NCBI GenBank assembly: GCA_036556205.1
Contig: DATBJW010000064.1
Location: 45,298 to 109,297 of the forward strand
Direction of reading: 5' to 3'
Origin: Gemmatimonadota bacterium
GTDB taxonomy: Bacteria; Gemmatimonadota; Gemmatimonadetes; JACCXV01
Length of the DNA: 64,000 nt
Under the pieces are notes generated by a model. That model made no database searches. It was not told the origin of the DNA and worked only from the letters and a program-made list of their open reading frames with translations. The position numbers and the translations under genes were made by a program. Each line of letters starts with the position of its first letter. Positions within the stretch are counted from its first letter, which is position 1. Shown here piece by piece: positions 25,485-45,707 of this stretch.

Positions 25485-25817
25485 CAGCGGGGGACTCCTC
25501 GGGAGGAAATTGAGAGCGACGGGAAGCCGGAGCGGCGGTACGGGCCAGCAGTCTAGCCTCGACTCAGAGGGCTGTCAAACGCGACCGGCGACCGATTTCC
25601 GCTCACGGGCGCGGCGCTTCCGCCTGCCGCCCGGCCGCGCGCACCTGGGCTCCCGACGGTCGAGATTCTTCCTCCGCGGCCGGGGTTCGTCTTAGCTTTC
25701 GCTCCCGAACGCTCCCCGGGAGTGGTGGGTGGCCTTCCCCAGAGGTTCGGGTTCTTCCCTTCAGTCCGTGCGCTTCAAATCGACGCTCTTCAAGCGTCAG
25801 GCAGCCCGGAGGTGCGT

Positions 25818-29734: not shown

Positions 29735-30954
29735 TGGCGAGCTTCACCTACCGGGCCACGGACGCGCGCGGAGAGATCACGAACGGCGTCGTGCAGGGGC
29801 TCAACCTGGCGCAGGTCAAGGTGACCCTGCAGCGCCAGGGGCTCTTCCCGCTCGAGGTCACGGAGCGGGCCGCGGCCACCACGAACGGGGCCGGCGTGGG
29901 AGCCAGCCTGCGGCGATTGGGCTCGGCGCGGGCCGAGCTTCCCGCCTTCACGCGCGCGCTGGCGTCGTTTCTCGGTGCCGGCTTCCCGCTGGACCGCGCG
30001 CTCGGCATGTACGCAGACCTGGCCTCCCATCCGCGCTTCGACGCGGCCGTCAAGCACGTGCGGCGGGAGATCCAGGCCGGACGCAGCTTCGCGGGCGCGC
30101 TGGAGACGGAGCCCGGGCTCTTCGATCCGCTCTACGTGAGCACCGTGGGCGCCGCCGAACGCGCGGGCGCCCTGGAGGCGGCGCTCACGAGCCTGGCCGA
30201 CGCGCTCGAGGAGCGTCGCGAGCTGCGCCAGCAGTTGCAGGGGATCCTGCTCTACCCCGCGCTCATGGCTTGCGTGGGCGCGCTGGCCGTGGCCGTGCTG
30301 CTGATCTTCGTGATCCCGCGCTTCGTGGACATCCTGGAGGGCGGCGGGGCGGCGCTGCCCTGGGCCACGGCCGCGTTGCTGGGGGTGAGCCGCGTCGTGA
30401 CCCGCTTCTGGTGGCTCCTGGGGCTGATCGCGGCACTCGTCTTCGCGCTCGTCCACGGATACCTGAACACCTCCGAGGGCCGGCGCGCCTGGGACCGGCG
30501 CAAGCTGCGCCTGCCCGTCGCCGGGATCCTGATGCGCAAGCTCCTCGCGGCGCGGTTCTGCCGTACGCTGGGAACGCTGCTCCAGAACGGCGTGCCGCTC
30601 ACGAACGCCCTGCGGCTCACGGCCGAGACGCTGGGGAACACCGCCGCCGTGCAGGCCGTGCGCGACGTGCACGGTCGCGTCAAGGAAGGCGAGAGCCTGG
30701 CCTCGGCGCTCGGCCGTTTCGACGTGTTCCCGCCCGCGGTGCTGCGCATGATCGCCGTCGGCGAGGAGTCGGGGAAGCCCGAGGACATGCTGTTCAGGGC
30801 AGCTGAGTTCTACGAAGGCGAGACGCGGCGCAACCTGCGCACGCTGGTCGGGCTGGTGGAGCCGGCTCTGATCCTGCTGCTGGGGGGCGTCGTCGGATTC
30901 GTGGCGCTGGCCATGATCCAGGCCGTGTTCAGCATCAACGACGTGCCGCTGTGA
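29734..30954 (+). CDS. gspF: Type II secretion inner-membrane platform protein GspF
   Basis: Two GspF/PilC repeats with three TM segments. ATG overlaps the gspE stop (TGATG). The 995-aa ORF-track version starting at 27967 is a wrong-frame read-through. Confidence 0.9.
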   Translation: MASFTYRATDARGEITNGVVQGLNLAQVKVTLQRQGLFPLEVTERAAATTNGAGVGASLRRLGSARAELPAFTRALASFLGAGFPLDRALGMYADLASHPRFDAAVKHVRREIQAGRSFAGALETEPGLFDPLYVSTVGAAERAGALEAALTSLADALEERRELRQQLQGILLYPALMACVGALAVAVLLIFVIPRFVDILEGGGAALPWATAALLGVSRVVTRFWWLLGLIAALVFALVHGYLNTSEGRRAWDRRKLRLPVAGILMRKLLAARFCRTLGTLLQNGVPLTNALRLTAETLGNTAAVQAVRDVHGRVKEGESLASALGRFDVFPPAVLRMIAVGEESGKPEDMLFRAAEFYEGETRRNLRTLVGLVEPALILLLGGVVGFVALAMIQAVFSINDVPL

Positions 30955-30980: not shown

Positions 30981-31415
30981 ATGGCCAGGCTGAGAGAGCG
31001 GCGGGGATTCACGCTGATCGAGATCATGGTGGTGGTCATCATCCTGGGACTGCTGGCGGTGCTGGTGGCGCCGAACGTGATCGACAAGCTCAGCGTGGCC
31101 AAGGACAAGACGGCGCGCACGCAGATCGAGCTCCTGGGGACCGCACTCGACAGCTACCGCCTGGACAACGGCACCTATCCGTCCACGCAGCAGGGGCTCG
31201 AGGCGCTCTGGGCGAAGCCGATCACGGCCCCCGAGCCGCGCAACTGGGCGGGCCCCTACCTCAAGAAGCACGTGCCGCAGGATCCCTGGGGCCACGCCTA
31301 CGTGTACCACAGCCCCGGCGAGCAGAGCCCCGACGGCTACGACCTGCTGTCCCTGGGAGCCGACGGCGCCCCGGGCGGCGAGGGTGAGGATGCCGACCTC
31401 AAGAGCTGGGAGTAG
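30981..31415 (+). CDS. gspG: Type II secretion major pseudopilin GspG
   Basis: Prepilin leader plus cleavage/methylation motif (RGFTLIEIMVVVIILGLLAVLVAPN). Conserved GspG body (KAKADIQ-like TARTQIELLGTALDSYRLDNGTYP...GPYL...DPWG..Y.Y..PG..GYDLLS.G.DG). Confidence 0.9.
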   Translation: MARLRERRGFTLIEIMVVVIILGLLAVLVAPNVIDKLSVAKDKTARTQIELLGTALDSYRLDNGTYPSTQQGLEALWAKPITAPEPRNWAGPYLKKHVPQDPWGHAYVYHSPGEQSPDGYDLLSLGADGAPGGEGEDADLKSWE

Positions 31416-31890
31416 CGCCCGCCGCCCCGCGCGCCGGCCGGCCGCGGGCTTCACGCTGCTCGAGATCCTGGTCACGATCGCGATCCTGGGCCTGGTGAGC
31501 GCCCTCGCGGCGCCGGCGATCGCGAGCCGGCTGCTGGAAACGCCGCTCGATCACTCGGCGCGGCTGCTGGCGGGAATGCTCCAGGAGGCGCGCGCGCGGG
31601 CCGCCGTGCGGGCCGAGCCGGTGGCCGTGCTCTGGTCGCCGGAGGGACGACGCTTCAGCCTGCGCGGCGCGAAGGGCGAGCACGTGCTGGCGCTGCCGCC
31701 GGCCGTGCGCGTCGAGGCGCGCGGTCTGGTGACGGGTCTGCCCGGCATGCCGGCGGGCCGCGAGGGAATCGTCTTCTTCCCGCTGGGGGGCTCGAGCGGC
31801 GGGTCCATCACGCTTCGCTCGAGCGCGGGGTCCGCCACGCTGCGCGCGGATCCGATCGCCGGGACGGTGCAAACCGTCCGCGCGCGATGA
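31384..31890 (+). CDS. gspH: Type II secretion minor pseudopilin GspH-like
   Basis: Prepilin-type N-terminal methylation motif (AGFTLLEILVTIAILGLVSALAAP). ~165 aa. Position after gspG. Confidence 0.7.
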   Translation: MRMPTSRAGSSARRPARRPAAGFTLLEILVTIAILGLVSALAAPAIASRLLETPLDHSARLLAGMLQEARARAAVRAEPVAVLWSPEGRRFSLRGAKGEHVLALPPAVRVEARGLVTGLPGMPAGREGIVFFPLGGSSGGSITLRSSAGSATLRADPIAGTVQTVRAR

Positions 31891-32342
31891 GCCGGCGCGC
31901 CTTCACGCTGCTCGAGGTGCTGGTGGCGCTCGCCATTCTGGGCCTCGGCATCACGAGCGCGCTGACGCTGATGGGCACCTCGAGCCGGGCCGCCGTCCGG
32001 GCCCGCGACGTGACCGAGGCCACGTTCGTCGCCGAGGAGGTCATGGAGGAGCTCTGCACGTTGAACGAGTCCGAGCTGCGCGCGAAAGCGCGCGAGACCG
32101 GCGACTGGGCCGAGCTCGAGCGGCGCGCCCAGCAGCGCCGTGAGGGACGCTCGAGCGCTCTGGAGCGCCTGCCCGAGCCCGACCGCTACGCGTACGCCGT
32201 GCAGGTCGTCGCGGACCGGAACGAGCCCGGACTCTACCGCGTGGACGTGGAGGTGACCTGGCCCGGGACCGGCGAATCGGGCCTGCAGCTCACGACCCTG
32301 CGGCGCTTCCCGGCGCCCGAGACCGGAGGGATGCCGCAGTGA
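31887..32342 (+). CDS. gspI: Type II secretion minor pseudopilin GspI-like
   Basis: RAFTLLEVLVALAILGLGITSAL N-terminal motif. 151 aa. Position. Confidence 0.7.
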   Translation: MSRRAFTLLEVLVALAILGLGITSALTLMGTSSRAAVRARDVTEATFVAEEVMEELCTLNESELRAKARETGDWAELERRAQQRREGRSSALERLPEPDRYAYAVQVVADRNEPGLYRVDVEVTWPGTGESGLQLTTLRRFPAPETGGMPQ

Positions 32343-33382
32343 AGCGCTCCCGGCGCCGCGGCGTGGCCCTGGTGCTCGCCCTCTGGGTCCTCGTCCTCTT
32401 CTCCTTCGTGGGCCTGGAGCTGAGCACCTTCTCGCGGGCCGACACGGGGGGCGCGCGCTACCTGAAGGAGCGCCTCCAGGCCTACTACCTCGCGCGCGGC
32501 GGCGTCGAGCGCGGGATCGGGCTGGTGAACGACTACTTCCGGCGTTACCCCGCGAACGCTCTCGCCGCCAAGAACCTGGGGCGCGATCTGAGCACGCTGA
32601 AGGAGTCGCGGCCTCCGCTCCTGACGTGGCTCGCCGACCGCGGCCTGGCCCGCGTGCCGCTCGGCGCGGGCAGCTACAGCCTGCGCTTCGAAGACCTCGC
32701 CGCTCGCGTGAACGTGAACCGCACCGATCCGCTCGTGCTGGCGAACCTGATCCGGCTCACCGGTGTTGACGACGCCCGCTCGCGTCAGCTCGCCGACGCG
32801 GTTCTGGACTGGGTCGACGCCGACGACCAGCACCGCCCCCAGGGAGCCGAGCGGGACTGGTACGAGCGCCACCGCCTCCGCCCCCCGCGCAACGGCCCCG
32901 TGACGCAGCTCGAGGAGCTGCTCCTCGTGAAAGGCATGACGCGCGACATCCTCTTCGGCGGCGAGCGGACCAAGGGGTTGGTCCCCTTCCTCACGACCGA
33001 GGGACCGGGCAAGATCAACGTGAACTCGGCACCGGCCGAAGTGCTGCTGGCCGTCCCAGGGCTGGATCAGGGGACGGTCTCGCGCATCCTGAGCACGCGG
33101 CGCACGCGCTCGCTGCGCAGCCTGGCCGAGGTTCTGGGCGCCGATCCCGAGGCGCAACTCGGCCGCAATCCCGTGCTCGGCCTCCTCTCGTTCGACACGA
33201 CCGAGATGGCCGTGGAGGCGCAGGGGATGCTGGCCGGCGCGCCGGCCCGCAGCGTGGTGCGCGCCACGGTCGGCGTCATGCCCGCGGGGCTCGTCGTGCG
33301 CGGCTGGCGCGACGACTTCCCGTCGGGACTGGCGCTGGCTCCCGCATCGTCCGCCGCCGACTCAACCGGTCCGCAATCGTGA
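32339..33382 (+). CDS. gspK: Type II secretion minor pseudopilin GspK-like
   Basis: N-terminal RGVALVLALWVLVLFSFVGLELS. Size ~347 aa. Helix-hairpin-helix-like segment (INVNSAPAEVLLAVPGLDQGTVSRIL) is typical of GspK. Confidence 0.7.
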   Translation: MKRSRRRGVALVLALWVLVLFSFVGLELSTFSRADTGGARYLKERLQAYYLARGGVERGIGLVNDYFRRYPANALAAKNLGRDLSTLKESRPPLLTWLADRGLARVPLGAGSYSLRFEDLAARVNVNRTDPLVLANLIRLTGVDDARSRQLADAVLDWVDADDQHRPQGAERDWYERHRLRPPRNGPVTQLEELLLVKGMTRDILFGGERTKGLVPFLTTEGPGKINVNSAPAEVLLAVPGLDQGTVSRILSTRRTRSLRSLAEVLGADPEAQLGRNPVLGLLSFDTTEMAVEAQGMLAGAPARSVVRATVGVMPAGLVVRGWRDDFPSGLALAPASSAADSTGPQS

Positions 33383-34812
33383 AGCGCTGCCTGGGTATCG
33401 AGATCGGCCGCGCGTTCGCGGCGATCTGCGAGGTCGCCCCGGACGGCGAGGGCCCCGGCCGGCATCGCCTCGCCCGGCACGCCTTCGCCGAAGGCGAGCT
33501 GCCCACGCCCGACCAGCTGGCCGACACCTGTCTGCAGCTGGCGCTCGAAACCGGGATCCGCGAGCGCGCGGCCGTGCTGGCGCTCGCCCGCTCGCTCACC
33601 TACACGAAGACCGTCCAGCTGCCGCCGCTTCCGAACGACGACCGGCTGAAGCTGGTCACGGTCCAGCCCGAGCGGTTCTTCCCGGTCTCCGACCGGGCTC
33701 TCGTATGCGACCTCGAGCCGGGCACGAACGGTGGACCCTCGGTCGCCCATGCCACCGAGGCCGATCAGCTCGAGGCCGTGGTCGAGGCGCTCCAGAGTCG
33801 CGGCTTCCGCATCCGCGCCGTGCTGCCGGCTTCAGCGGCCCTGCAGCGCGCGGCGCTGCGGGGCATCCCGGGGCTGTCGGACGCCAACTGGCTGCTCGTG
33901 CGGCCCGAGGCGGGAGGGATCACCGCCAACGCCTTTCGGGCCCGCAGCCTGCGCGTCTCGCGCCGCATGGAGAACTTCAGCGGGGATCCCGAAGGGGCGT
34001 TCCGCGAGATCGCGCGCACCGTAGCCAGCGCCTTCGAGGATGGGGCGGCGGTCAGCGAGGTGCGGTGGTCCGGTTGGAACGGGCTCCCCGACGCGGTCCG
34101 CCGCGCGGGCGCCGCGAGCCTGCCGGTGCCGGTGCGGGACCTCTCGGAGCTGCCGGTCGAGAGCGAAGGGCTCGTCGCGTACGGCGCCGCGCTGGCGGGT
34201 CTCGAGGAGGCGCCGCGGCCCGACCTGCTGCCGCCCGCCGTTCGGGCGCGCCGGCGCCAGCAGGGGCGCTGGATCACGATGGCCTGCGGCGCGCTGGCGC
34301 TGCTGGCCGCCCTGGCGCTCATCTGGGCCCTGGGGCAGCGGCAGGATCGCCAGCTGGCCCAGCTCGAGGCGGAGACCCGCAAGGCGCGGGCCGGTGCGCT
34401 CGCCGCGGCCGACGCCCGCGACGCGCTGAAAGCGCTCGAGGACCGCATCGCCGCCGTCCAGGGCCGCATGGAGCAGCGCGCGGCCTGGCTGAGGATGATG
34501 AAGGAGATCAGCTCGGCGCTGCCGACGAGCGCCTGGATCGGAAGCCTCTCCATCGCCCCGGACGGCGATGTGAGCCTCTCGGGATACGCCACGACGGCCT
34601 CGGCCCTCGTTCCCGCTTTGCAGGCCACCGACGCCCTGGACCGCGTCGAGTTCGCCGCTCCCGCCACGCGCGCCAACATCGGGCGCCGCGAGCTGGAGGC
34701 GTTCAACATCCGCGCGGTCCTGCAGGGGAGCCCGGCCGACAGCTCCCGCGCGGCCAATCCGCAGGGGACCGTGGAGAACCCCGACGCCGGCCTGGTCGGA
34801 GACGAGGAGTGA
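33379..34812 (+). CDS. gspL: GspL-like inner-membrane assembly protein: cytoplasmic actin-like (PilM-like) domain, one TM helix, periplasmic PilN/GspL-like domain
   Basis: Cytoplasmic domain 1-300. TM (WITMACGALALLAALALIWAL). Coiled coil, then a periplasmic ferredoxin-like domain. Architecture equals GspL, or a PilM-PilN fusion. Confidence 0.65.
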   Translation: MKRCLGIEIGRAFAAICEVAPDGEGPGRHRLARHAFAEGELPTPDQLADTCLQLALETGIRERAAVLALARSLTYTKTVQLPPLPNDDRLKLVTVQPERFFPVSDRALVCDLEPGTNGGPSVAHATEADQLEAVVEALQSRGFRIRAVLPASAALQRAALRGIPGLSDANWLLVRPEAGGITANAFRARSLRVSRRMENFSGDPEGAFREIARTVASAFEDGAAVSEVRWSGWNGLPDAVRRAGAASLPVPVRDLSELPVESEGLVAYGAALAGLEEAPRPDLLPPAVRARRRQQGRWITMACGALALLAALALIWALGQRQDRQLAQLEAETRKARAGALAAADARDALKALEDRIAAVQGRMEQRAAWLRMMKEISSALPTSAWIGSLSIAPDGDVSLSGYATTASALVPALQATDALDRVEFAAPATRANIGRRELEAFNIRAVLQGSPADSSRAANPQGTVENPDAGLVGDEE

Positions 34813-34816
34813 GGGC

Positions 34817-35407
34817 GTGATCTGGCTGCGTCTCGACAAGGGCCAGCTGGCCCTCGTGCTCTTCTCCGTGGCGCTCTTCGTGGCCGCCATCGTCGTGCTG
34901 CTGCTGCCGGCACCCGCGCTGCCCGAGCCGGCACCTCTCACCTCGCGCGACGGATCCCCCCCCGCGTTCGAGGCCCCGCTCCCTTCGATGGCCAACGACC
35001 CGGCCGGACCGCTCGTGGACGCCGACCCGTTCGACGCCACCCGCCAGCCCCCGGCCAGGCGCAGGACGACGCTCGGCGCCGAGGGCGGCGACGAGCAGGC
35101 GCTGCCGGCGGCCTTCACCCTGCTCGGCACCGTCGTGACCGGAAACGGCCGCGACATGGCCGTGATCCGGGCCAACCCCGCCCTTCCCACGGGCGCCACG
35201 TACCGCGTCGGCGACGAGCCCCTGCCCGGCTATCGCGTGACGAGCATCCGGCGCGACGGCGTCACGATCTCCGGCAACGGTCAGTTGTTCGAGCTCGAGA
35301 TCCAGAAGACCGCGGACTTCCACATGCCGCAGGGCCTGCAGGGCGCGGGCTACCAGGGCGACTTCGGCGACACCGACGAGGACCAGGAAGAAGGGATGAA
35401 CCAGTGA
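34817..35407 (+). CDS. GspC/PilP-like inner-membrane protein of the type II secretion system (secretin-interacting HR-type domain)
   Basis: GTG start. N-terminal TM (LALVLFSVALFVAAIVVLLL), Pro-rich linker, then a small beta domain (FTLLGTVVTGNGRDMAVIRANP...TYRVGDEPLPGYRVTSIRRDGVTI) resembling the GspC HR / PilP fold. Confidence 0.55.
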   Translation: MIWLRLDKGQLALVLFSVALFVAAIVVLLLPAPALPEPAPLTSRDGSPPAFEAPLPSMANDPAGPLVDADPFDATRQPPARRRTTLGAEGGDEQALPAAFTLLGTVVTGNGRDMAVIRANPALPTGATYRVGDEPLPGYRVTSIRRDGVTISGNGQLFELEIQKTADFHMPQGLQGAGYQGDFGDTDEDQEEGMNQ

Positions 35408-36288
35408 CGGCCCGCGAGCGGCGCACCGTGCGGCTGGGTCTCGTGGCCGCCGCCATGATCCTCCTCTACGTGCTGGCGCTGGACCCGTACCTGACGGCCC
35501 GCGCGAAGACGCGTGACCTGATCGAGCAGCAGCAGGCCCAGCTCTCCCGGCTGGTGGCCCTGGACCGGTCGCTGCCGATCTACCGCCGGCGCCTGCAGGC
35601 GGCGCAGGCCACCTGGGACGCCGAGGTCCGGCCGCGGCTCGTGGCCGGGGACGTGCCCGCCGTCGCCGCTTCGACCCTTTCCAACGAGGTGCGACGCGTC
35701 GCCGCCCAGAGCTTCCTCGACGTCGAGCGCGAGAACGTGCTGGCCGCGACCGAGAAGGACGGCCTCACCGCGATCCCCGTGCAGTTCTCGCTGCGGGGCG
35801 ACATCTACGGCCTGCGGGACTTCCTGGCCGCGCTCGAGTCCACGCGTACGTTCCTGAACCTGCGGGAGCTGCGCGTCACGGCGATCACGGGCGGATTCAA
35901 CCAGGTCCTTCCCGTCACGGCGGCTCCGCTCCAGATGACGGTCACGGTGGAGGGCTACCTGGGCGGGGCGCCGGCCGCGGGTGAGCCGGCGGCCCCGCAG
36001 CCGCCGGGCGCAGCTGCGCCGGCCGGCGCCGAGGGAACGACCGTCACCCCGAGCCCACCGGCCGCGGAGCCTGCTCCGACGAGCTCCGTCGAGCCCGGCC
36101 CGCCGAGCGGCGTCCCTGCCCCTGCCGGGCCTTCGCAGGAGGGAGCGCGGGCGGAACCGGGCGCGGCCCCGCGAGCGGGCCTCGGCGGCGCACCCGAGCG
36201 GCCGGCCGGGGCGCCGGCCGGGGCGGACGTCCGTCGCATCCCGCGCGGCGGCGCGGCCGCGCCCGCTCCGGGGGACGCGCGCCGATGA
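35404..36288 (+). CDS. gspM: GspM/PilO-like type II secretion inner-membrane protein with an extended Pro/Ala-rich C-terminal tail
   Basis: N-terminal TM (LGLVAAAMILLYVLAL), coiled coil, ferredoxin-like periplasmic domain (LTAIPVQFSLRGDIYGLRDFLAALES...LRELRV). ~110-aa low-complexity tail. Confidence 0.6.
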   Translation: MTARERRTVRLGLVAAAMILLYVLALDPYLTARAKTRDLIEQQQAQLSRLVALDRSLPIYRRRLQAAQATWDAEVRPRLVAGDVPAVAASTLSNEVRRVAAQSFLDVERENVLAATEKDGLTAIPVQFSLRGDIYGLRDFLAALESTRTFLNLRELRVTAITGGFNQVLPVTAAPLQMTVTVEGYLGGAPAAGEPAAPQPPGAAAPAGAEGTTVTPSPPAAEPAPTSSVEPGPPSGVPAPAGPSQEGARAEPGAAPRAGLGGAPERPAGAPAGADVRRIPRGGAAAPAPGDARR

Positions 36289-36407
36289 GGCTCCCCGAGG
36301 GACCTGCGCCGGCCCACGCGGGTCGGAACGATCCGGGCGCGCGCATGCACGCGAACGGCAACCCCGGCGAGTCGGGCGAACGAGCGGATCGCCAACGCGG
36401 AGAGACG

Positions 36408-38900
36408 ATGACGCGAGACCTCCCGGACATTCCCAGCGGCCACGGCCGTCGCCGGCCGTGCGTCGCTGCGCGCCGGGCCCTTCTCGCGGCGCTGTTCCTC
36501 GTCTCGGCGCTGGCCGCTCCGGCCGTCGCTCCCGCCCGCGCGCAGGAGCCCGGCGTGCGCCGGGAGGGCGGGCTGGTCTACTTCAACCTCCAGAACGTGG
36601 ACATCCGCTCGGCCCTGGACACGATCAGCCAGGTGCTGGGGATCAGCTACGTGCTCGGCGGAAGCGTGCCCACGGGCACGCCGATCACGATCAGCACCGC
36701 GGCCGGGATCCCCCTCGAGAAGGTGCCCGACCTGCTGGACTCGGTCCTGCGCACCTACAACCTGGCGCTCATCAAGACCGGGGACGTCTTCACGGTCATC
36801 CAGGCCGGCGAGGGCCAGCCGGCGGGGGAAGTGACGCGCACCCAGGTTTACGTCTACTACCTGCGGAACGCCAACGCCGTGGACGTTGCGAACGTGCTCT
36901 CGCAGCTCTTCCAGGGATCAGCTCCCGCCGGCGGGTTCGTGCGCCGCAGCCCTCCTGCGCAGGGCCTCTCGCGGCGCCTCGAGCAACAGAACCTACCCTA
37001 CGCGGACACGCAGCAGAACCCCTTCGGCATGGGCGGGGTGAACGACCAGGTCCCGCAGGCGACCGAGGCGAACACGCCCGTGCGCGTGATCCAGGGCGAG
37101 CTCGTCGGCCAGACGTCGATCGTGCCGGACGAGACCACGAACAGCCTGATCATCAAGACCGCGCCCGAGAACTACCCTTCGATCCAGGAGACGATCGCCA
37201 AGCTCGACATGCGGCCCGCGCAGGTGCTAATCGAGGTCACCATCGCCGAGATCACGCTGGACAAGTCGATGCAGTTCGGCATCGAGTACCTGCTCAGGGG
37301 CAAGACCGAGATCGGCGGCGAGACCGTGCGCGGCGAGCTCGAGCTCCAGAGCCCGACTCCGATTGTGGGCGGCCTGCGCGCGCACGTCTTCGACAGCGGG
37401 AACGTGGACGTGGTCCTGCGGGCGCTGGCCGCGGACGCCCGCGTCAACGTGCTCTCGACGCCGCGCGTGCTCGCCGTCAACAACCACGAGGCTCGGATCC
37501 TGATCGGCTCCGAGGTTCCCTTCGTTCAGTTCTCGCGCGCGACCACGGGCGAGGCCATCGACCAGGTCGTGCAGTACCGCAACGTGGGCCTGGAGCTCAC
37601 CGTCACGCCGCGCATCAACCCTGACCGCTACATCAGCATGGACCTGCTGCAGCAGGTCTCCGCGCTCACGAACGACGTCCTATTCGACGCTCCCATCATC
37701 ACGACGCGGGAGGCGCAGACCTCACTGGTGGTAGGTGACAACCAGACGATCGTGCTGGGCGGGTTGATGGAAGACCGCAAGGAGAAGCGCCGCAACGGGA
37801 TTCCCATCCTGAAGGACATTCCGGTCCTGGGCTGGCTCTTCGGCACCACGTCCGAGCGCACGGTGAAGACCGAGCTGGTCCTCACCCTCACGCCCTACAT
37901 CGTCGAGTCGGACCAGGAGCTGCAGCGCCTGCGCCAGGAGATCGAGTCCCACAGCGAGCTCTACCAGAAGGAGCTCGAGAAGCGCCGCGAGGAGGGGCAC
38001 TTCGTGCCCGGCGACCTGACTCCCGAGCGAATGCAGTCGGCTCCCGTCGCGCCGGCGGGACCGGCACCAACGCCAACGCCGCTTCCGGCCGACACGACCA
38101 CGCTCGCGCCGCGCGACACGGCGCGGGCGGCCGCCATGCCGGCCATGGGCGAGCCGGCCCAGGCGCCCGTGGTCGGCGCAGAGCCGGAGCCCCGCGTCAG
38201 CAGCCTGGAGCGAGGGCCGGAGATCAGCCAGCCGGCTCCCGAGGGCGGCGGGGGGAATGCCGATGCTCCCTCGCCTTCGACCTACGGCGCGCCCTCGTCG
38301 GCGGGAGAGACTCCGGAGGTGAATCAGCCCGCGGCGCCGAGTCCCCCGCCGGCGGAGGCCGTCGAGCCGACTCCAGACGAACCGAGCGGCGAGCAGGTCG
38401 AGACCTTCGAGCCGACTCCGGGCGAGCCGGGTGCCGAGCAACAGGTCGAGACGTTCGAGCCGCCTGCCGGCGAACCGGGCGGCGGGCACGTGGAGACGTT
38501 CGAGGCGCCCGCCGCTGAACCGGGCGGCGGGCACGTGGAGACGTTCGAGGCGCCCGCCGGCGAACCGGGCGGCGAAGCCCGGCAGACGCCACCGTCCCCC
38601 GCCGAGCCGGGAGGCGCCCCTGAGACGCCAGAGCCGCCCCTCGCCGAGCCGGGCGGCCCGAGCTTCCGGGTGCAGGTCATGGCCGTCCCCGATCAGCGCG
38701 CGGCCGAGGACGAAGCCGACCGGCTGCGCGGCATCCTCGGACCGGAGCTCCCGGTCTACGTGGAGCGGGAGCGCCCCTTCTACAAGGTCCGGGTGGGCGA
38801 CTTCCCCACCAAGGACGAAGCGCACGCCGCGGTCGTCAGGCTGCGCGGGCTGGGCTACAACGACGCCTGGACGGTCACCGTTCCGGGCTCGGGCGGCTAG
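36408..38900 (+). CDS. gspD: Type II secretion secretin GspD fused to a C-terminal SPOR domain through a repetitive linker
   Basis: ATG at 36408; signal peptide (ALLAALFLVSALAAPAVAPARAQEP). N0-N3 domains, then the secretin core (VLSTPRVLAVNNHEARILIGSEVPFV...NVGLELTVTPRIN...TIVLGGLMED...IPILKDIPVLGWLFG...VLTLTPYIV). Then a ~230-aa Pro/Glu-rich linker with 4x VETFEAPAGEPGGGH repeats. Then a SPOR-like domain (FRVQVMAVPDQRAAEDEADRLRG...PFYKVRVGDFPTKDEAHAAVVRLRGLGY). Confidence 0.85.
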   Translation: MTRDLPDIPSGHGRRRPCVAARRALLAALFLVSALAAPAVAPARAQEPGVRREGGLVYFNLQNVDIRSALDTISQVLGISYVLGGSVPTGTPITISTAAGIPLEKVPDLLDSVLRTYNLALIKTGDVFTVIQAGEGQPAGEVTRTQVYVYYLRNANAVDVANVLSQLFQGSAPAGGFVRRSPPAQGLSRRLEQQNLPYADTQQNPFGMGGVNDQVPQATEANTPVRVIQGELVGQTSIVPDETTNSLIIKTAPENYPSIQETIAKLDMRPAQVLIEVTIAEITLDKSMQFGIEYLLRGKTEIGGETVRGELELQSPTPIVGGLRAHVFDSGNVDVVLRALAADARVNVLSTPRVLAVNNHEARILIGSEVPFVQFSRATTGEAIDQVVQYRNVGLELTVTPRINPDRYISMDLLQQVSALTNDVLFDAPIITTREAQTSLVVGDNQTIVLGGLMEDRKEKRRNGIPILKDIPVLGWLFGTTSERTVKTELVLTLTPYIVESDQELQRLRQEIESHSELYQKELEKRREEGHFVPGDLTPERMQSAPVAPAGPAPTPTPLPADTTTLAPRDTARAAAMPAMGEPAQAPVVGAEPEPRVSSLERGPEISQPAPEGGGGNADAPSPSTYGAPSSAGETPEVNQPAAPSPPPAEAVEPTPDEPSGEQVETFEPTPGEPGAEQQVETFEPPAGEPGGGHVETFEAPAAEPGGGHVETFEAPAGEPGGEARQTPPSPAEPGGAPETPEPPLAEPGGPSFRVQVMAVPDQRAAEDEADRLRGILGPELPVYVERERPFYKVRVGDFPTKDEAHAAVVRLRGLGYNDAWTVTVPGSGG
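38395..38585 (+). repeat. 45-bp tandem repeat inside gspD (two perfect copies plus two degenerate copies; 15-aa repeat VETFEAPAGEPGGGH)
   Basis: gaaccgggcggcgggcacgtggagacgttcgaggcgcccgcc occurs twice in tandem, flanked by diverged copies (gagccgggtgccgagcaacaggtcgagacgttcgagccgcctgcc). Confidence 0.8.
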
Positions 38901-38911
38901 GCCCGGCCCGC

Positions 38912-39598
38912 GTGCGGAGCCTCTTGCTTAGAGAGGCGGCAGCCTGGAAGACGCTCCACGGCGCGCGTGCGCTCGATCCCGCGCGATCGGCGCGCGGCTT
39001 CACGCTGATCGAGGTCGCGGTCGCGCTCGCGATCCTGGGGCTCATCACGGTCACGATCTACATGTCGCTCCGGAGCGCTCTCGACAACGTGGATCACCTC
39101 CGCGAGAGCCAGGAGCCCTATCAGCGCGGGCGCGTGACGCGGTCGTTCCTCGCGAGCGCGCTGCGCTCTGCGTCCCTGTTCACGGGGCTGCCCGAGGACG
39201 GCTTCGCCGCGGTGGACAGCTCGCACGCCGGGGTCCCGCGCGACGAGCTCACCTTCGTGGCCCTCTCTCCGCCGGGGGCGCGCGGGAGCCGCATGCAGGT
39301 CCACCTCTACGTGGCGGATTCGGCCGGCGGCTCGTTCCTGAAGCTCGACGTGCGTCCGGTCGGCGTGGCTGACTCCACGCCACCCTTCACGAGCTACACG
39401 CTGTCGAACGCCGTGCGCGGGCTCGACCTGAGCTACCTCGCCGCGGCGGCCGACGACCGCACGATCTGGCTCGACCACTGGGATTCGCTGATCCGCCTGC
39501 CGTACGCCGTCCGCATCACGTTCCTGCCCGCCGGCGTGCCGGATCCCCTGTGGGAGACCCCCCTGGTGACCCAGCTCCCCGCCGGCCGCATGCTCTGA
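38912..39598 (+). CDS. gspJ: Type II secretion minor pseudopilin GspJ-like
   Basis: Prepilin cleavage/methylation motif (RGFTLIEVAVALAILGLITVTIY). ~228 aa. The C-terminal beta-rich domain is typical of GspJ. Confidence 0.65.
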   Translation: MRSLLLREAAAWKTLHGARALDPARSARGFTLIEVAVALAILGLITVTIYMSLRSALDNVDHLRESQEPYQRGRVTRSFLASALRSASLFTGLPEDGFAAVDSSHAGVPRDELTFVALSPPGARGSRMQVHLYVADSAGGSFLKLDVRPVGVADSTPPFTSYTLSNAVRGLDLSYLAAAADDRTIWLDHWDSLIRLPYAVRITFLPAGVPDPLWETPLVTQLPAGRML

Positions 39599-39834: not shown

Positions 39835-41046
39835 ATGAGACGCGTGCTCGCGCTGCTCTCGCTGTCGGCTCTCGCCGCGTGCCGGGACGCACCCGGCCCC
39901 CTCGCTCCCGGCGACGAAGCGGCGGACGCGAGCCTCTCGGACCAGGCCTCGGACTCCCTGTCGCCCACGCTCGACGCCAGCGCCGAAGGCGTCCTGCCGG
40001 GTCGCTGGATCGTGACGCTCAAGCCCGGGGTGGCCTCTCTCACCGCGGGCACCAGCCTCGGTCTGCGCCCCGACTACGTCTACACGCGGGCGCTCAACGG
40101 CTTCGCGGTTCGGCTCTCCGATTCGGCGGCGCGCGCTCTTTTGCGGGACGCGCGCATCCTCTCGATCGAGCCCGACGGGATCGCCACCGCGACGACGACG
40201 GAGACGAGCGCGCCCTGGGGGCTCGACCGCATCGACCAGCGCAAGCTCCCCGTCGACACCCAATTCCACTACACGGCCACCGGGCAGGGTGTCACGGCCT
40301 ACGTGATCGACACCGGCATCCGGTTCGACCACGCCGAGCTCTCGGGTCGCGCCGTGAGCCTCGTGGACGAGGTCGACGGAGGCTCCGCGGACGACTGTCT
40401 CGGCCACGGCACGCACGTCGCCGGAACGCTGGGCGGGGAGACCTACGGCGTGGCCAAGGACGTGAAGCTGGTCGCCGTGCGCGTGCTGGACTGCAACGGG
40501 TTCGGCACCTGGAGCCAGGTGATCGCCGGTATCGACGCCGTGATCGCCGACCACCAGGCCGGCGTGCCGGCCGTCGCCAACCTCTCGCTGGGCGGGCCCA
40601 AGCGGGCGTCGGTCAACACCGCGATCAAGAACCTGATCGGCGACGGCGTCACGACGGTCGTCGCGGCCGGCAACGGCGACATCTTCGGGTTCCCCCAGAA
40701 CGCCTGCAACGTCTCGCCCGCGGGTGTGCGCCTCGCGATCACCGTGGGCGCCACCGACCAGACCGACACCAAGGCCCCGTGGTCGAACTTCGGCAACTGC
40801 GTGGACTGGTTCGCGCCGGGCGTGGACATCCTCTCGGCCTGGGTCTCGGGTCCCCACGACACGTTGATCCTGAGCGGCACCTCGATGGCCGCACCCCACA
40901 CCGCCGGCGTAGCCGCCCTGTTCCTGCAGGGCAGCCCCTCGGCCTCCCCAGCGGCGGTGCGCAGCGCGCTCTTCGCCAAGACGACGAAGGGCATCGTGAA
41001 GGCCTCGAGCACGGCCACGAACCACCTGCTCTTCACGAAGTACTAG
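39835..41046 (+). CDS. Subtilisin-like serine protease (peptidase S8, proteinase-K-like) with an I9 propeptide and a lipoprotein signal
   Basis: Signal plus lipobox (LSLSALAAC). Inhibitor_I9 prodomain (RWIVTLKPG...). Catalytic triad motifs: D (AYVIDTGI), H (HGTHVAGT), S (GTSMAAPH). RBS AAGGAGG upstream. Confidence 0.9.
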   Translation: MRRVLALLSLSALAACRDAPGPLAPGDEAADASLSDQASDSLSPTLDASAEGVLPGRWIVTLKPGVASLTAGTSLGLRPDYVYTRALNGFAVRLSDSAARALLRDARILSIEPDGIATATTTETSAPWGLDRIDQRKLPVDTQFHYTATGQGVTAYVIDTGIRFDHAELSGRAVSLVDEVDGGSADDCLGHGTHVAGTLGGETYGVAKDVKLVAVRVLDCNGFGTWSQVIAGIDAVIADHQAGVPAVANLSLGGPKRASVNTAIKNLIGDGVTTVVAAGNGDIFGFPQNACNVSPAGVRLAITVGATDQTDTKAPWSNFGNCVDWFAPGVDILSAWVSGPHDTLILSGTSMAAPHTAGVAALFLQGSPSASPAAVRSALFAKTTKGIVKASSTATNHLLFTKY

Positions 41047-42373
41047 TCGAAGGCGCCGGCGGCGCCCCGTCGCAGGCGCCGCCGGGCTCGTCCCTCCCTC
41101 GCGCGCCATCGTCGGCGGCGGCGTCCACGCCCGCCGCCGGCGCCTCGTTTGTCAGCTCCCCCTCCGCGGCGTCCGACCCGTCGTCGAGATTGCCCGGGTC
41201 CTCCGCGCCGACTTCCGGCGCCCCTTCCCGCTCGTCCGGCTCGTCGTCATCGGCGGAAGTGCCGCGCGGGACGGGCACGCCCAGCCGGCGGGCCTCGCGC
41301 CGGACCTTGTTCCGTTCCCAGCCCAGGAGCGCCCCGGCCCGGGTCAGGTTGCCGCGCGCGATCGCCAGCACGCGCCGCAAGTGGTGGCGGAGCACCGTGT
41401 CGGCTCGCAGGTCGGGTGGTCCGTCGTCCTCGTGCATGGCCCAGACCTTCAGGTCCCCGCGCTCGATCCAGCACGAGCGGGCCCGCAGGAAACCGATGCG
41501 AAGCGTCTCGCGCAGCTCGCGCACGTTTCCCGGCCAGGCGTAGGCCAGAAACCAGGATTCCGTCGCCGCGTCCCAACCACGCACGTCCTTGCCGTAAGCC
41601 TCGGCGAACTCGCGCATGAACGTCTCGGCCAGTAGCAGGATGTCCTCGCCCCGGTCGCGCAGAGGCGGCAGCGACAGCTCGATCCCGCTCAAGCGGTAGT
41701 ACAGGTCGCGCCGGAAGCGCCCCTGCGCCACGAGCCGGCCCAGGTTGCGGTTCGTGGCGCTCACGAACTGGACGTTCACGTCCACCGCGCTCGAGGAGCC
41801 CACCGGTCGCACCTGACGGCTCTCGGACACGTAGAGCAGCTTGGCCTGGACGCGGGGGCTGATCTCGGTGATCTCGTCCAGGAACACGGTCCCGCCGCTG
41901 GCCTCGACTATGAGTCCGCGCCGCTCGCTCCGCGCGTCGGTGAATGCTCCCCGCGCGTGGCCGAACAGCTCGCTCTCGAAAAGGGTGGCCGGGATGTTGG
42001 GGCAGGGCACCTCGATGAAGGGCCGAGCCGCGCGGGGGCCTATCGCGTGGTAGAGGCGGGAGAGGAAGCTCTTCCCCGTGCCGGTGGGACCCGTGAGGAG
42101 GAGGTTGATCGAGTAGGCCGAGAGCGACCTCAGCGTGCTCTTGACCTCGAGCATGCCCGGCGAGGAGCCCACGACCTTGTCGAGCGCGTCGGGGACGCCG
42201 ATCCTGTCACCTGCCTCGCGATAGACTTCCGCGTGGGGGCTTGCCGTCGGGTGTCCCAGCACGCCTCTCCCTCCCGATCCCGGGCTCGCGGACGGACGAC
42301 TCAAGCTCCCAACCGGGTCTCCCGCCCCTGCACGACGCGTGCCGAGCAGCAGAGGAGACCGGGCGAAAGGCAT
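41033..42373 (-). CDS. Sigma-54-dependent transcriptional activator (bEBP) without a receiver/sensor domain and with an acidic C-terminal tail
   Basis: AAA+ sigma-54 interaction domain: Walker A (LLTGPTGTGKS), GAFTDA variant (GAFTDARSER), Walker B (GTVFLDEI), arginine fingers, C-terminal Fis-type HTH (LRRVLAIARGNLTRAGALLGWERNKVRR). Only ~70 low-complexity residues precede the AAA+ domain. ~85-aa Asp/Glu-rich tail. Confidence 0.85.
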   Translation of the reverse strand: MPFARSPLLLGTRRAGAGDPVGSLSRPSASPGSGGRGVLGHPTASPHAEVYREAGDRIGVPDALDKVVGSSPGMLEVKSTLRSLSAYSINLLLTGPTGTGKSFLSRLYHAIGPRAARPFIEVPCPNIPATLFESELFGHARGAFTDARSERRGLIVEASGGTVFLDEITEISPRVQAKLLYVSESRQVRPVGSSSAVDVNVQFVSATNRNLGRLVAQGRFRRDLYYRLSGIELSLPPLRDRGEDILLLAETFMREFAEAYGKDVRGWDAATESWFLAYAWPGNVRELRETLRIGFLRARSCWIERGDLKVWAMHEDDGPPDLRADTVLRHHLRRVLAIARGNLTRAGALLGWERNKVRREARRLGVPVPRGTSADDDEPDEREGAPEVGAEDPGNLDDGSDAAEGELTNEAPAAGVDAAADDGARGRDEPGGACDGAPPAPSTSTS

Positions 42374-42840: not shown

Positions 42841-43367
42841 CGCACAGTCGCCTGGCCGGGCGCGAGCGTCACGTCGAAGCGCTCCGCGTCGCGATCCACC
42901 ACGACACCGCCCTCGAGGCCCACGGGGTACACACCGGCCGCGACCGTGCCGGTGCGGAAGCTCATGAGCAGGACCGCGCCCTCCCCGGCCGGGATCGTGG
43001 CCGTCCCCTCGGGATCGAAGAGCAGCAGCCGGGCGCGGCCGAGCTCCAGGTTCTGAACGACGGCTTCGAGCCGCCCGGCGGCGCGCCCTTCGGGTGCCGC
43101 GCCCTCCAGCAGGGGGATCACGTCCGGCGCGCTCACCAGATCCACCTGCAGGCTCGCGACCGGGAGGTTGTTGGCGAGCACGAGAGCGACGCTCACGCGC
43201 TCTCCAGTCCCGGTCGTGAAGCTTGGCGCCGTGATCGTCGCGGCCGGCGTCGGACCCGGCCCTCCCCCGCCGCCGTCGCCGCAAGCGGAGGCGAGGACCG
43301 CTCCGGTGAGGGCCACCGCGAGCAGCGCGGCACCGACAGCGCGCGTGGCGCGCGGCCCGGCGCTCAC
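42837..43367 (-). CDS. Cohesin-like domain lipoprotein
   Basis: GTG start at 43367. Signal plus lipobox (AALLAVALTGAVLASAC). Gly/Pro linker. ~130-aa beta-sandwich resembling cohesin modules (VSVALVLANNLPVASLQVDLVSAPDV...LLLFDPEGTATIPAGEGAVLLMSFRTGTVAAGVYPVGLEGGVVVDRD). Start overlaps the stop of the dockerin gene (GTGA). Confidence 0.5.
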   Translation of the reverse strand: MSAGPRATRAVGAALLAVALTGAVLASACGDGGGGGPGPTPAATITAPSFTTGTGERVSVALVLANNLPVASLQVDLVSAPDVIPLLEGAAPEGRAAGRLEAVVQNLELGRARLLLFDPEGTATIPAGEGAVLLMSFRTGTVAAGVYPVGLEGGVVVDRDAERFDVTLAPGQATVR

Positions 43368-45655
43368 CGCGCGGGCCTCCCGAGCGCCGGCGCACCGGCG
43401 CCGAGCGCGGCGACGGCACTCGCGGAAGCGAGCGGGCGCAGGCTTCCCCCGCGCGTGGCCGCCGTCACGCCCTCCAGCCGCGGCGCCGTGCCGGCGAAGC
43501 GGAAGAGCGGCACGCCCAGCGGCAGGTTCGCCCCCGCCAGGACGAGCACCCGGAACCGCCCGCCTCGCACGCCGGCCGTCACGACCTGGCCCGCGCTCGA
43601 GACCAGGCGCGGGGGCGTGGCGAGGCCCGCCGGGAGCCGGAAGGTGACCTCGAGCGCGCCCAGCGCGAGGTCCGGGCCAGGCGCGGCCGAGCCGTCGCTG
43701 GCCGCGCGCCGCCGGCCGCCCGGCATGGCGCCCGCGCCCGGCGCTTCCACCAGGCGAAAGGCGGCATCGTACCCGCCATGTCCATCCGGCTCGTCGTAAC
43801 GGTATTCGGGGATCTGGGCCTGCTTGCTCAAGCTGCTGCGCCCCAGCGCGCCGGGTGCGAGCAGGTTCCGGTCGAGGACCCGGTCCACGAGCCCCACCAG
43901 GTCGCCCACGTCGAGCTGCCCGTTGCCGTTCACGTCGGCGGCGCGCGTCTCCGAGTCCGAGAGGCTCCCGCGGCCGGCCAGGACCCCCAGCGCGCGCTGC
44001 AAGTCGGCAGCGTCCGAGCGCCCGTCGCCGTCCAGGTCCCCGGTCGCGAAGGGTGCGGCGGCCGCGGAAAGGGCGGCCCCCGAGATCACGTACGCCTCGC
44101 CGGCGTCCAGGAACAGGTTGCCGCGGCCGTCGCCGATCATGGCGTTCACGACCACGTCGCCGGCGCCGTCCTGGTCCACGTCGGCGCCGATCAGGGAGTA
44201 GGAGAGGATGTCGCCCGGATCGGCGGCCAGCACGACGCCGAAGGGCAGGGTCGCCAGGGGAGGATGGTCCAGCTGGATCTCCGCCGGCAGGCGCCCGGCG
44301 GGCGAGCGGACGAAGAAGAGCGCTCCGGTGCGCTCGCGCGCGTCGCTCCCCAGGAAGGTGCCGGTGGGGCTGCCGATGAAGACGTCGTCGCGCCCGTCGC
44401 CGTCGATGTCGATGAAGCGCGCCGTGTCGCCCGTGATCCCGCCCGCCGTGGGTCCGTAGATGACGCTCACTCCCGCCGGCGGCTGGCGCAGGTCGATGCG
44501 CGCGCCGTGCAGCGCCGGCCCTCCGTAGACGAGGTACGCCTCGCCCGCGCTGTTGCGCAGGTTCTCGAACCCGTCGGCCGTGAGCGCCCCGATCAGGACG
44601 TCGCCGAAGCCGTCGCCGTCGGCATCGCCCACGTTGACCTCCTCGCCGGCGAAGTCGCCGGGGTCGGCGCCGTAGACGATGGCCGCATCCGCGGGCGGGT
44701 CGGCGAGATCGACGCTCCCTCCGCGCGTCGGCGTGAAGACGACCGCCACCTCGCCCGCCCGCGCCCGCGTCTCGTCGGGGCCGTCGGCTCCCTCGACGGA
44801 GCCGTTGAAGACGACGACCGCCGCCCGGTTCAGCGCCGAGCCCACGACGAGGTCGGCCACACCGTCGGCGTCGATGCGTCCGGCGTGGACGGCGCTGCCC
44901 GCCTTGTCCTGGCTGTCGGCGCCGTGGACGGTGAAGACCCGTCCGGCCGCGTCCAGCGCGCCCACCGAGGTCGTCCCGGGCACCAGGTCGCCCCCGCCGT
45001 AGAGCACGTACGCGGCCCCGGCGCTCTCCCGGTCTCCCGCCGGCCCGTCCACGTCGGGCGCCCCGACCAGCACGTCCCCGAAGCCGTCGCCGTCCACGTC
45101 CACCACGTCCACCCAGACGCCGAAGTGGTCGCCCCCCGTCGCGCCGGCGATGCGGAGCACGTTCGGAGAAGCGAGCACGTCGATCTCGGGAGCCAGCGCG
45201 GGCGAGCCGAAGACCACGTAGACCGTTCCCGTCCCCACCTGCCCGGACACGACGACGTTGGGCGCGCCCAGGACGAGGTCCGCGAATCCGTCGCCGTTCA
45301 CGTCCCCGCCGGCGCACTCGACACCCAGCGACTGGATGCCCGAGATCCGGGTCACGACGCCCGGCTGGGCGAGGGCCTCCTGCTGGCCGGCGTTGACGGA
45401 GGGCGCGAAGAAGAGGAAGGCCTCGGAGGCGTTGAAGGCGCAGAGGAGCACGTCGTCGCGCCGGTCGCCGTTCACGTCTCCGCCGCCGAGCGGGAGCCCG
45501 AAGTTGCCGCCGCTGATCGTGCGCAGGAGGAGGTCTCGCTGCCCGGCGGGGTGAAGGGCCGTGTCCCATCTGAGAACGCTCTGCGCCTCCAGCGGGCGCG
45601 CGGCGGCGGCCGGCCCGAGCAGGGCGAGGAGAGCGATCCTTCGAAGGGGGAGCAC
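43364..45655 (-). CDS. Secreted FG-GAP (integrin-alpha-like) repeat beta-propeller protein carrying a type-I dockerin module
   Basis: GTG start at 45655 gives a signal peptide (LPLRRIALLALLGPAAAARPLEA). Multiple FG-GAP/VCBS repeats (GDVNGDGFADLVLGAP, DVDGDGFGDVLVGAP, DADGDGFGDVLIGA, DIDGDGRDDVFIGSP, DVDQDGAGDVVV). Dockerin duplicated segment (DLDGDGRSDAADLQRALGVLAGR / DVNGNGQLDVGDLVGLVDRVL). The C-terminal ~130 aa are beta-rich with no assignment. The 45913 ORF-track start is rejected. Confidence 0.75.
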   Translation of the reverse strand: MLPLRRIALLALLGPAAAARPLEAQSVLRWDTALHPAGQRDLLLRTISGGNFGLPLGGGDVNGDRRDDVLLCAFNASEAFLFFAPSVNAGQQEALAQPGVVTRISGIQSLGVECAGGDVNGDGFADLVLGAPNVVVSGQVGTGTVYVVFGSPALAPEIDVLASPNVLRIAGATGGDHFGVWVDVVDVDGDGFGDVLVGAPDVDGPAGDRESAGAAYVLYGGGDLVPGTTSVGALDAAGRVFTVHGADSQDKAGSAVHAGRIDADGVADLVVGSALNRAAVVVFNGSVEGADGPDETRARAGEVAVVFTPTRGGSVDLADPPADAAIVYGADPGDFAGEEVNVGDADGDGFGDVLIGALTADGFENLRNSAGEAYLVYGGPALHGARIDLRQPPAGVSVIYGPTAGGITGDTARFIDIDGDGRDDVFIGSPTGTFLGSDARERTGALFFVRSPAGRLPAEIQLDHPPLATLPFGVVLAADPGDILSYSLIGADVDQDGAGDVVVNAMIGDGRGNLFLDAGEAYVISGAALSAAAAPFATGDLDGDGRSDAADLQRALGVLAGRGSLSDSETRAADVNGNGQLDVGDLVGLVDRVLDRNLLAPGALGRSSLSKQAQIPEYRYDEPDGHGGYDAAFRLVEAPGAGAMPGGRRRAASDGSAAPGPDLALGALEVTFRLPAGLATPPRLVSSAGQVVTAGVRGGRFRVLVLAGANLPLGVPLFRFAGTAPRLEGVTAATRGGSLRPLASASAVAALGAGAPALGRPAR

Positions 45656-45707
45656 GAGCCTCCGGGAGGGGAAGAGGGCCAGGCAATATCGCGCGGAAGG
45701 GAGGCCT

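Follow-up and report, generated by a model that had tools for sequence, protein, structure and literature searches.

A type II secretion system secretin of an uncultured Gemmatimonadota bacterium carries a C-terminal SPOR domain on a predicted disordered, repeat-bearing linker

How large secretin pores pass through the peptidoglycan, are fixed to it and are positioned relative to it is understood only in part. The solutions for attachment known so far vary by lineage, comprising AMIN domains, GspA/B, OutB, TsaP and, in Legionella, an N-terminal SPOR domain. A further solution is suggested by a 64,000-nucleotide stretch of DNA, here termed the window, from a Gemmatimonadota bacterium (assembly GCA_036556205.1, contig DATBJW010000064.1, positions 45,298 to 109,297 of the forward strand), which has a GC content of 71%. 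An earlier note, made from the letters of the window, had described one of its genes as a gspD with a SPOR domain at the extreme C-terminus; this gene is referred to below as gspD-SPOR. The locus raises the question of whether a secretin may bear its own peptidoglycan-binding module at this end of the protein and, if so, what the module would do there.

The maximal open reading frame (ORF) of gspD-SPOR extends from 36285 to 38900 on the forward strand, is uninterrupted and encodes 871 amino acids from the first ATG, with a stop codon at 38898-38900. This most upstream ATG overlaps the stop codon of gspM (ATGA, 36285-36288). Public gene calls obtained by exact-sequence look-up begin further downstream, at 36345 (Met21, 851 amino acids; JGI) and at 36408 (Met42, 830 amino acids; NCBI HEY7462110.1, entitled 'MAG TPA: secretin N-terminal domain-containing protein [Gemmatimonadota bacterium]'). 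Translation is likely to start at 36408 or 36345, and orthologues begin near the former. The signal peptide is probably cleaved at a conserved A-x-A|Q site, residues A43 and Q46 being invariant in the GspD alignment; a lipobox is not present.

Of the NCBIfam secretin models, that for GspD (TIGR02517) gave the best score at 305 bits, with PilQ at 194.9 bits. The score falls short of the TIGR02517 equivalog cut-off of 351.35, and the protein is best described from its sequence as a divergent GspD. The gene is the tenth and last of a co-directional type II secretion system (T2SS) operon in which the core genes are complete. Since both the T2SS neighbourhood and the NCBIfam ranking point to GspD, assignment as a PilQ, type III secretion system or Flp secretin was rejected, and the product is identified as the outer-membrane secretin of a complete T2SS.

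Comparison of the 871-residue translation with Pfam yielded a marginal match to GspD N0 (PF21305) at residues 101-169 (27.7 bits, cut-off 27), followed by Secretin_N (PF03958) at 189-313 (55.3 bits, cut-off 28.2), Secretin (PF00263) at 380-541 (E 1.8e-46; 158.3 bits, cut-off 27.5) and SPOR (PF05036) at 793-864 (E 8.9e-13; 48.8 bits, gathering score 21), the last spanning profile positions 4-75 of 76. These matches bear out the earlier note, which had placed approximately 330 residues beyond the secretin core and a SPOR domain in the last 75 or so: 330 residues lie past the Secretin domain, and the hidden Markov model search finds SPOR well above threshold. No SPOR match was obtained in the N-terminal region of the protein, and the AMIN family was absent among its Pfam matches at E values up to 1.

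A full-length AlphaFold2 model was produced from an alignment of 116 sequences, with numbering from Met42. Folded N-domains (N0 and Secretin_N) were followed by the barrel at approximately residues 272-499 and by a helix at 502-528, which sits in the position of the S-domain and is also conserved in relatives lacking SPOR. The next 222 residues (529-750) form a linker with a predicted local distance difference test score (pLDDT) below 50 nearly throughout, containing 49 Pro, 34 Ala, 32 Glu and 29 Gly. Beyond it, a compact β-α-β-β-α-β domain was predicted at 752-825 with a pLDDT of 91-95. Structural matches of the full-length model included PulD, GspD, EpsD and XcpQ, with PulD-PulS (6hcg) and AspS-GspD (5zdh) among the best. 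When the last 87 residues were modelled alone (pLDDT 84.9), the best match in the PDB was the SPOR domain of CwlC (1x60; template-modelling score 0.75/0.82, root-mean-square deviation 1.5 Å), and further matches were RlpA (6i05, and 6i09 with denuded glycan bound), DedD (6ztg) and DamX (2lfv). A sequence profile of the secretin-borne SPOR domains matched CwlC (5.7e-10), FtsN 1uta (1.1e-8), RlpA and DedD. Model and PDB matches alike indicate that the C-terminal region folds as SPOR and not as an unrelated domain, the latter being an outcome that the earlier note had named as refuting its reading.

In known structures of T2SS secretins, the C-terminal S-domain is found outside the barrel, on the periplasmic side, and contacts the pilotin there; the pilotin is an outer-membrane lipoprotein belonging to the inner leaflet. 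On this topology, the C-terminal tail of the window GspD would start in the periplasm, immediately beneath the outer membrane. For a disordered chain of 222 residues, a contour length of approximately 80 nm and a coil dimension of more than 10 nm are estimated, enough to reach the peptidoglycan. The earlier note had placed the SPOR domain on the opposite end of the channel from that at which peptidoglycan-binding modules normally sit. This did not hold: the two ends are opposite in primary sequence and not in space, and since the secretin C-terminus is periplasmic, the domain would not be stranded on the wrong side. An anchor on the wrong end of the channel was rejected.

The favoured explanation, to which a probability of roughly 0.7 is given, is that flexible C-terminal SPOR arms tether the T2SS pore, position it at septa or poles, or both, by binding denuded peptidoglycan. 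During evolution the periplasmic C-terminus of GspD would have acquired an acidic, proline-rich disordered linker of about 220 residues together with the SPOR domain. Every subunit of the secretin ring would then contribute a single SPOR domain, suspended by a flexible tether from the outer face of the barrel just beneath the outer membrane. These domains would bind peptidoglycan glycan strands free of peptides ('denuded'), and binding could both fasten the pore to the cell wall and bias its installation towards sites processed by amidases, namely septa and new poles.

It is possible, though clearly less probable, that the SPOR domain is a targeting signal only, bringing new secretin monomers to the septum so that the T2SS is pre-installed at future poles, with later attachment irrelevant. 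A role in septum-to-pole pre-installation has been proposed for the AMIN domains of PilQ in Pseudomonas (PMC5285504), septal targeting is the role of those SPOR domains that have been characterised to date (PMC6895207, PMC5285504), and a long, floppy tether would make a poor load-bearing strut while being suited to capture. Against this, the many tethers of a single pore would together bind with high avidity, which points to attachment that lasts; moreover, targeting and anchoring are not exclusive roles, and sequence cannot separate them.

The distribution of the fusion bears upon whether the arrangement has been selected. Within the Gemmatimonadota, among 120 homologues listed for the window protein, SPOR was present in only three clusters (P0001, 98% identity; P0002, 77%; P0003, 76%). 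Relatives at the next remove, with cores 58-68% identical, possess the same helix followed by Pro-rich tails of 80-110 residues without SPOR. A scan of GTDB genomes with an alignment of closer sequences yielded three loci only, all of SPOR-less relatives; two metagenome scans, one using an exact DNA pattern from the start of the SPOR domain and the other the protein, found no further members of the window clade, and a word-indexed search for homologues of the isolated SPOR domain returned nothing usable. In the SPOR-less proteins P0007-P0010, the Pro-rich tails end in (V/L)(I/L)GDT(I/L)P(S/T) plus at most 3 residues (alignment A2, columns ~670-690). This motif may be a C-terminal sorting or partner-binding peptide, located where the window clade has SPOR.

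A search across all lineages was made with a chimeric query, consisting of the last part of the secretin domain and SPOR, against 1.84 billion representatives. Subsequent local domain scoring and Pfam analysis identified six more clusters in which Secretin is followed by a C-terminal SPOR, one of them annotated as Candidatus Binatota (MEA2659549.1). For a Binatia-type secretin (P0161), SPOR was found no more than 40 residues from the C-terminus in 116 of the best 120 homologue clusters, which are named Candidatus Binatia where they are named; SPOR was not detected in the other four, at least one of which (P0387) is annotated as partial. On a 203-kb Binatia contig, gspD-SPOR is again the final gene of a gspE...M operon. 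Between Binatia and the window, the secretin core is 33-37% identical and the SPOR domain 20-32%. In a neighbour-joining tree of the cores, which is a distance tree without support values and not proof, the window SPOR clade was nested within SPOR-less Gemmatimonadota GspDs and the Binatia formed a separate clade. Because the window clade is small and lies among SPOR-less relatives, the gain in Gemmatimonadota was probably independent, and the simplest reading is probably that of two independent gains of a C-terminal SPOR, one in Gemmatimonadota and one in Binatia. The recurrence in both groups argues in turn that the arrangement is selected.

At the Binatia locus L007 (8482-10011), the T2SS genes stand in the same order as in the window with gspD-SPOR last, and a protein of 171 amino acids without a Pfam match occupies the position that the GspC-like protein of the window holds relative to gspD. 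A single T2SS operon subtype may be common to Gemmatimonadota and Binatia, despite gains of SPOR that appear to be independent. The cluster P0232 represents a third group of shorter proteins (~600 amino acids), with Secretin then a C-terminal SPOR, in which N0 was not detected; it groups with the Binatia clade in the neighbour-joining tree. JGI names within this cluster include 'Flp pilus assembly secretin CpaC' and, for fragments, 'DedD', these automatic names being inconsistent.

Residues of the glycan-binding face were compared in the window protein, P0003 and the Binatia proteins after alignment with FtsN and RlpA, using the residue roles given for FtsN (Q251, S254, W283, R285) and RlpA (Q270, R309) in PMC6895207. 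The Gln equivalent to FtsN Q251 and RlpA Q270 is invariant in every secretin-borne SPOR examined. At the position of FtsN W283 the window protein has Phe and the Binatia proteins Trp; at that of FtsN R285 and RlpA R309 there is Lys, and at that of FtsN S254 there is Ala, which RlpA also has. The exchanges of Trp for Phe and Arg for Lys are conservative. In the window domain the conserved glycan-face residues are located within RVQV and FYKVRVG; across secretin-borne SPOR domains the RVRVG strand is almost invariant.

Several observations weigh against tethering through denuded glycans. The close relative P0002 carries Glu at the basic position of FtsN R285 and RlpA R309, so that strong glycan affinity is not guaranteed. 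Ratios of nonsynonymous to synonymous substitution (dN/dS, Nei-Gojobori) were calculated between the window and two orthologues, those of GCA_973515355.1 (L001, ~91% nucleotide identity) and GCA_040961615.1 (L002, ~83%). Against L002 the ratio was 0.67 for SPOR and 0.07 for the barrel, SPOR being much the faster-evolving; against L001 it was 0.14 for SPOR, a value that speaks in favour of the tethering explanation but is drawn from 7 substitutions only, and 0.10 for the barrel. Furthermore, the closest relatives outside the clade lack SPOR, and the domain is therefore dispensable for T2SS function as such. Judged by these ratios, the SPOR domain is under weaker constraint than the barrel, although in the alignment the motifs that define its fold and form its ligand face are largely kept.

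A SPOR fold that has drifted towards another ligand, whether an exopolysaccharide, a protein partner or its own secretin in the manner of a built-in pilotin-like assembly aid, or that has become a nearly neutral appendage, would accommodate the relaxed constraint relative to the barrel (0.67 versus 0.07), the Glu of P0002 and the similar Pro-rich tails of the SPOR-less sister secretins, which end without any domain. Such drift is nevertheless unlikely, given the invariance of the glycan-strand Gln in all secretin-borne SPOR domains and the near-invariance of the RVRVG strand, the high confidence with which the fold is predicted, and the independent recurrence of the fusion and its retention across more than a hundred Binatia clusters, which argue for selection.

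Within the linker, Tandem Repeats Finder reported a repeat with a period of 45 bp, 4.7 copies and 83% matches. The earlier note had counted four copies of a 15-residue unit, and four VETFE-type units of 15 or 16 residues were found together with degenerate flanking copies. It had also held two copies to be perfect at the nucleotide level, which was not the case: the best pair (38487-38531 and 38532-38576) is identical at only 41 of 45 positions, with an exact common stretch of approximately 28 nt. Its expectation of length variation was borne out among near-identical strains. In eight members of one 90%-identity cluster, from which repeat number was judged, there were two 3-unit alleles (P0001, P0408) and four distinct 4-unit sequences (P0403, P0405, P0406, P0407), P0403 and P0406 being the window's own protein called from different starts. 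The 3- and 4-unit alleles are otherwise more than 99% identical, and every allele stays in frame with SPOR. The locus L006 (JGI sample 3300036848) differs from the window in the repeat region by an exact in-frame deletion of 45 bp, that is one unit, and one single-nucleotide polymorphism. Alleles of 3 and of 4 units are each found with either state of a neighbouring Pro/Thr polymorphism, so that either slippage has recurred or recombination has taken place. The unit of 45 bp (3 x 15) is a multiple of three, so slippage alters linker length without switching frame, and a phase-variable on/off switch was rejected. Related units are arranged differently in P0002, and P0003 has a linker of similar length without such repeats. 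The VETFE repeat itself is consequently not conserved, and the tract is, on this comparison, a rapidly evolving stretch within a linker that lacks sequence conservation.

Less likely again is a contingency locus, in which unit number would be selected in order to adjust how far the tether reaches from the outer membrane to the peptidoglycan, or to diversify an exposed epitope. The occurrence of both alleles in sequences otherwise more than 99% identical, and a change in unit number that has recurred or recombined, are in its favour. However, the unit always preserves the frame and permits no on/off switching, its copies are imperfect, the repeat is absent from P0003 and rearranged in P0002, 15 of 222 residues represent a small change for a random coil, and the tail is periplasmic rather than surface-exposed. 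Under the tethering explanation, the repeat would instead be a slippage-prone filler of the tether, in which gain or loss of a unit adds or removes 15 residues and is presumably neutral.

Third-position GC is approximately 0.90 over the gspD-SPOR ORF as a whole in a single frame, and the same uninterrupted fusion occurs in L006 (99.7% nucleotide identity over 12.3 kb), L001 and L002. A search with a hidden Markov model built from the secretin-borne SPOR domains found no separate SPOR ORF beside gspD in the window or in the SPOR-less loci L003-L005. A mis-assembly, or a frameshift that has fused a secretin gene with a distinct SPOR gene, an outcome against which the earlier note had cautioned and for which only the general risk of metagenome assemblies speaks, can be rejected and is excluded for practical purposes, since four independent assemblies, which differ in sample of origin and in divergence, agree upon one continuous ORF, coding character is maintained in one frame and relatives without the fusion have no adjoining SPOR ORF.

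The features of gspD-SPOR and of the surrounding operon are listed in the table. The orthologous loci L001 and L002 share the neighbourhood of the window.

Table. Positions of gspD-SPOR, its domains and neighbouring genes in the window
Feature	Position	Strand	Basis or remark
gspE	28289-29734	+	T2SS operon
gspF	29734-30954	+	T2SS operon
gspG	30951/30981-31415	+	T2SS operon
gspH	31384-31890	+	T2SS operon
gspI	31887-32342	+	T2SS operon
gspK	32339-33382	+	T2SS operon
gspL-like (PilM/PilN-type)	33379-34812	+	T2SS operon
gspC-like	34817-35407	+	T2SS operon
gspM	35404-36288	+	T2SS operon
gspD-SPOR gene	36285..38900 maximal; start 36408 or 36345 likely	+	ORF, Pfam, database gene calls
Sec signal peptide, MTRDLPD...APARA|QEPG	36408..36542	+	probable; from conserved A-x-A|Q in alignment
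GspD N0	36585-36791	+	Pfam, AlphaFold2 model
Secretin_N (periplasmic N-domains overall 36585..37223)	36849-37223	+	Pfam, AlphaFold2 model
Secretin outer-membrane β-barrel domain, PF00263	37422..37907	+	Pfam, model, structural matches
Conserved post-barrel helix, residues 502-528 of 830-aa form	37911..37991	+	alignment, model
Disordered linker, 222 residues	37992..38657	+	AlphaFold2 pLDDT
45-bp tandem repeat, units VETFE(P/A)P(A/P)(G/A)EPGGGH	38362..38575	+	Tandem Repeats Finder; polymorphic
SPOR domain (PF05036), β-α-β-β-α-β	38661..38876	+	Pfam, models, profile and structural matches
Pseudopilin-like gene, prepilin N-methylation motif	38912..39598	+	directly downstream of gspD; position kept in relatives
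Subtilase (Peptidase_S8, I9 propeptide)	39835..41046	+	kept beside operon in relatives
Sigma-54-dependent activator	41033-42373	-	downstream of T2SS operon

No GspA-type gene was seen in the window operon, the only related signal being a weak, sub-threshold T2SSB match inside the GspC-like protein. GspM extends for approximately 100 residues rich in Pro, Ala and Gly past its T2SSM_b domain (residues 79-185 of 294), so that low-complexity tails are present on more than one component of this T2SS; small tandem repeats of 8-12 bp also lie in gspM, at 36201-36262. The subtilase and the sigma-54-dependent activator directly follow the T2SS operon in all three lineages. From its position the subtilase is a candidate substrate of the T2SS, and the activator a candidate regulator. 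Just upstream of gspE, and also in L006, a gene at 25722-27653 (+) encodes 643 amino acids with sub-threshold BNR/Asp-box (sialidase-like) matches. An FG-GAP repeat protein with a weak dockerin type I match is encoded at 43364-45913 (-), and at the orthologous locus in L002 (7008-10113) a small protein beside the FG-GAP protein has a weak cohesin match; cohesin-dockerin-like pairs would be unusual in Gemmatimonadota.

A C-terminal SPOR domain on a flexible tether would add a further solution to those by which secretins are attached, one that has probably arisen independently in two poorly studied phyla. This convergent recurrence is the most interesting aspect of these secretins, and two independent gains would strengthen the case that secretins in general need to be attached to peptidoglycan. 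The domain also offers a simple test case, as it could be expressed alone for assays of glycan binding or septal localisation. The arrangement is a modular variation on the secretin with a built-in peptidoglycan-binding module, and represents neither a new system nor a new principle; the understanding of T2SS mechanism is unchanged. A wider generalisation is put forward tentatively: SPOR may have been gained by T2SS secretins on three or more occasions (N-terminally in Legionella and, independently of one another, C-terminally in Gemmatimonadota and Binatia) as a general means of coupling the pore to denuded peptidoglycan without a pilotin or GspA/B, the C-terminal form providing a ring of long, acidic, length-variable tethers that would decide where the pore is installed, at septum-derived poles, and link the outer membrane mechanically to the cell wall around every pore.

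The earlier note had considered a C-terminal SPOR on a secretin to be undescribed. In the literature searched for secretin or GspD with SPOR no description was found, and to that extent the claim stands; a secretin with SPOR is, however, already known in LspD, and the C-terminal form is common among database sequences of Binatia (for one secretin, 116 of the best 120 homologues). The arrangement is thus undescribed in the searched literature yet present, unremarked, in more than 100 database entries annotated as 'GspD' without mention of SPOR. The Binatia fusions are named simply 'type II secretion system secretin GspD', and no publication describing them was found.

The nearest described protein is LspD of Legionella pneumophila (T2S D), a T2SS secretin with SPOR directly before N0 (PMC6617341, PMC9239104, bioRxiv 10.1101/525063). 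Both are secretins of GspD type carrying their own SPOR, and the Legionella system is without GspA/GspB. As far as the comparison can be drawn from the description of LspD, its SPOR is N-terminal, whereas that of the window protein is at the extreme C-terminus behind the barrel, the helix and a repeat-bearing linker of ~220 residues; the two also belong to different phyla. Closest in architecture are the Binatia GspDs such as MEA2659549.1, which share N0, Secretin_N, Secretin, the helix, a Pro-rich disordered linker and the C-terminal SPOR, as well as the final position in a gspE-F-G...K-L-M-D operon, but lack the VETFE repeat and, at the identities given above, form a separate clade.

Other systems achieve a comparable end by different means. 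PilQ of type IVa pili (P. aeruginosa, M. xanthus, Neisseria) has N-terminal AMIN domains for polar or septal installation and anchoring (PMC5285504), and resembles the window GspD in being a secretin with its own module for septal or denuded peptidoglycan; the module is AMIN rather than SPOR, is N-terminal and belongs to a pilus machine rather than a T2SS, and the window GspD has no AMIN match. GspA/ExeA (PF01471) and GspB/OutB link the T2SS secretin pore to the cell wall (PMC9239104) as separate inner-membrane proteins, whereas the module of the window is part of the secretin itself. FtsN, DamX, DedD, RlpA and CwlC share the fold and family of the window SPOR, in which the Gln of the glycan sheet is kept and the aromatic and basic positions hold the conservative exchanges Phe and Lys, with Glu at the basic position in P0002; those proteins act in division and cell-wall remodelling, whereas here the domain is carried on a secretion pore.

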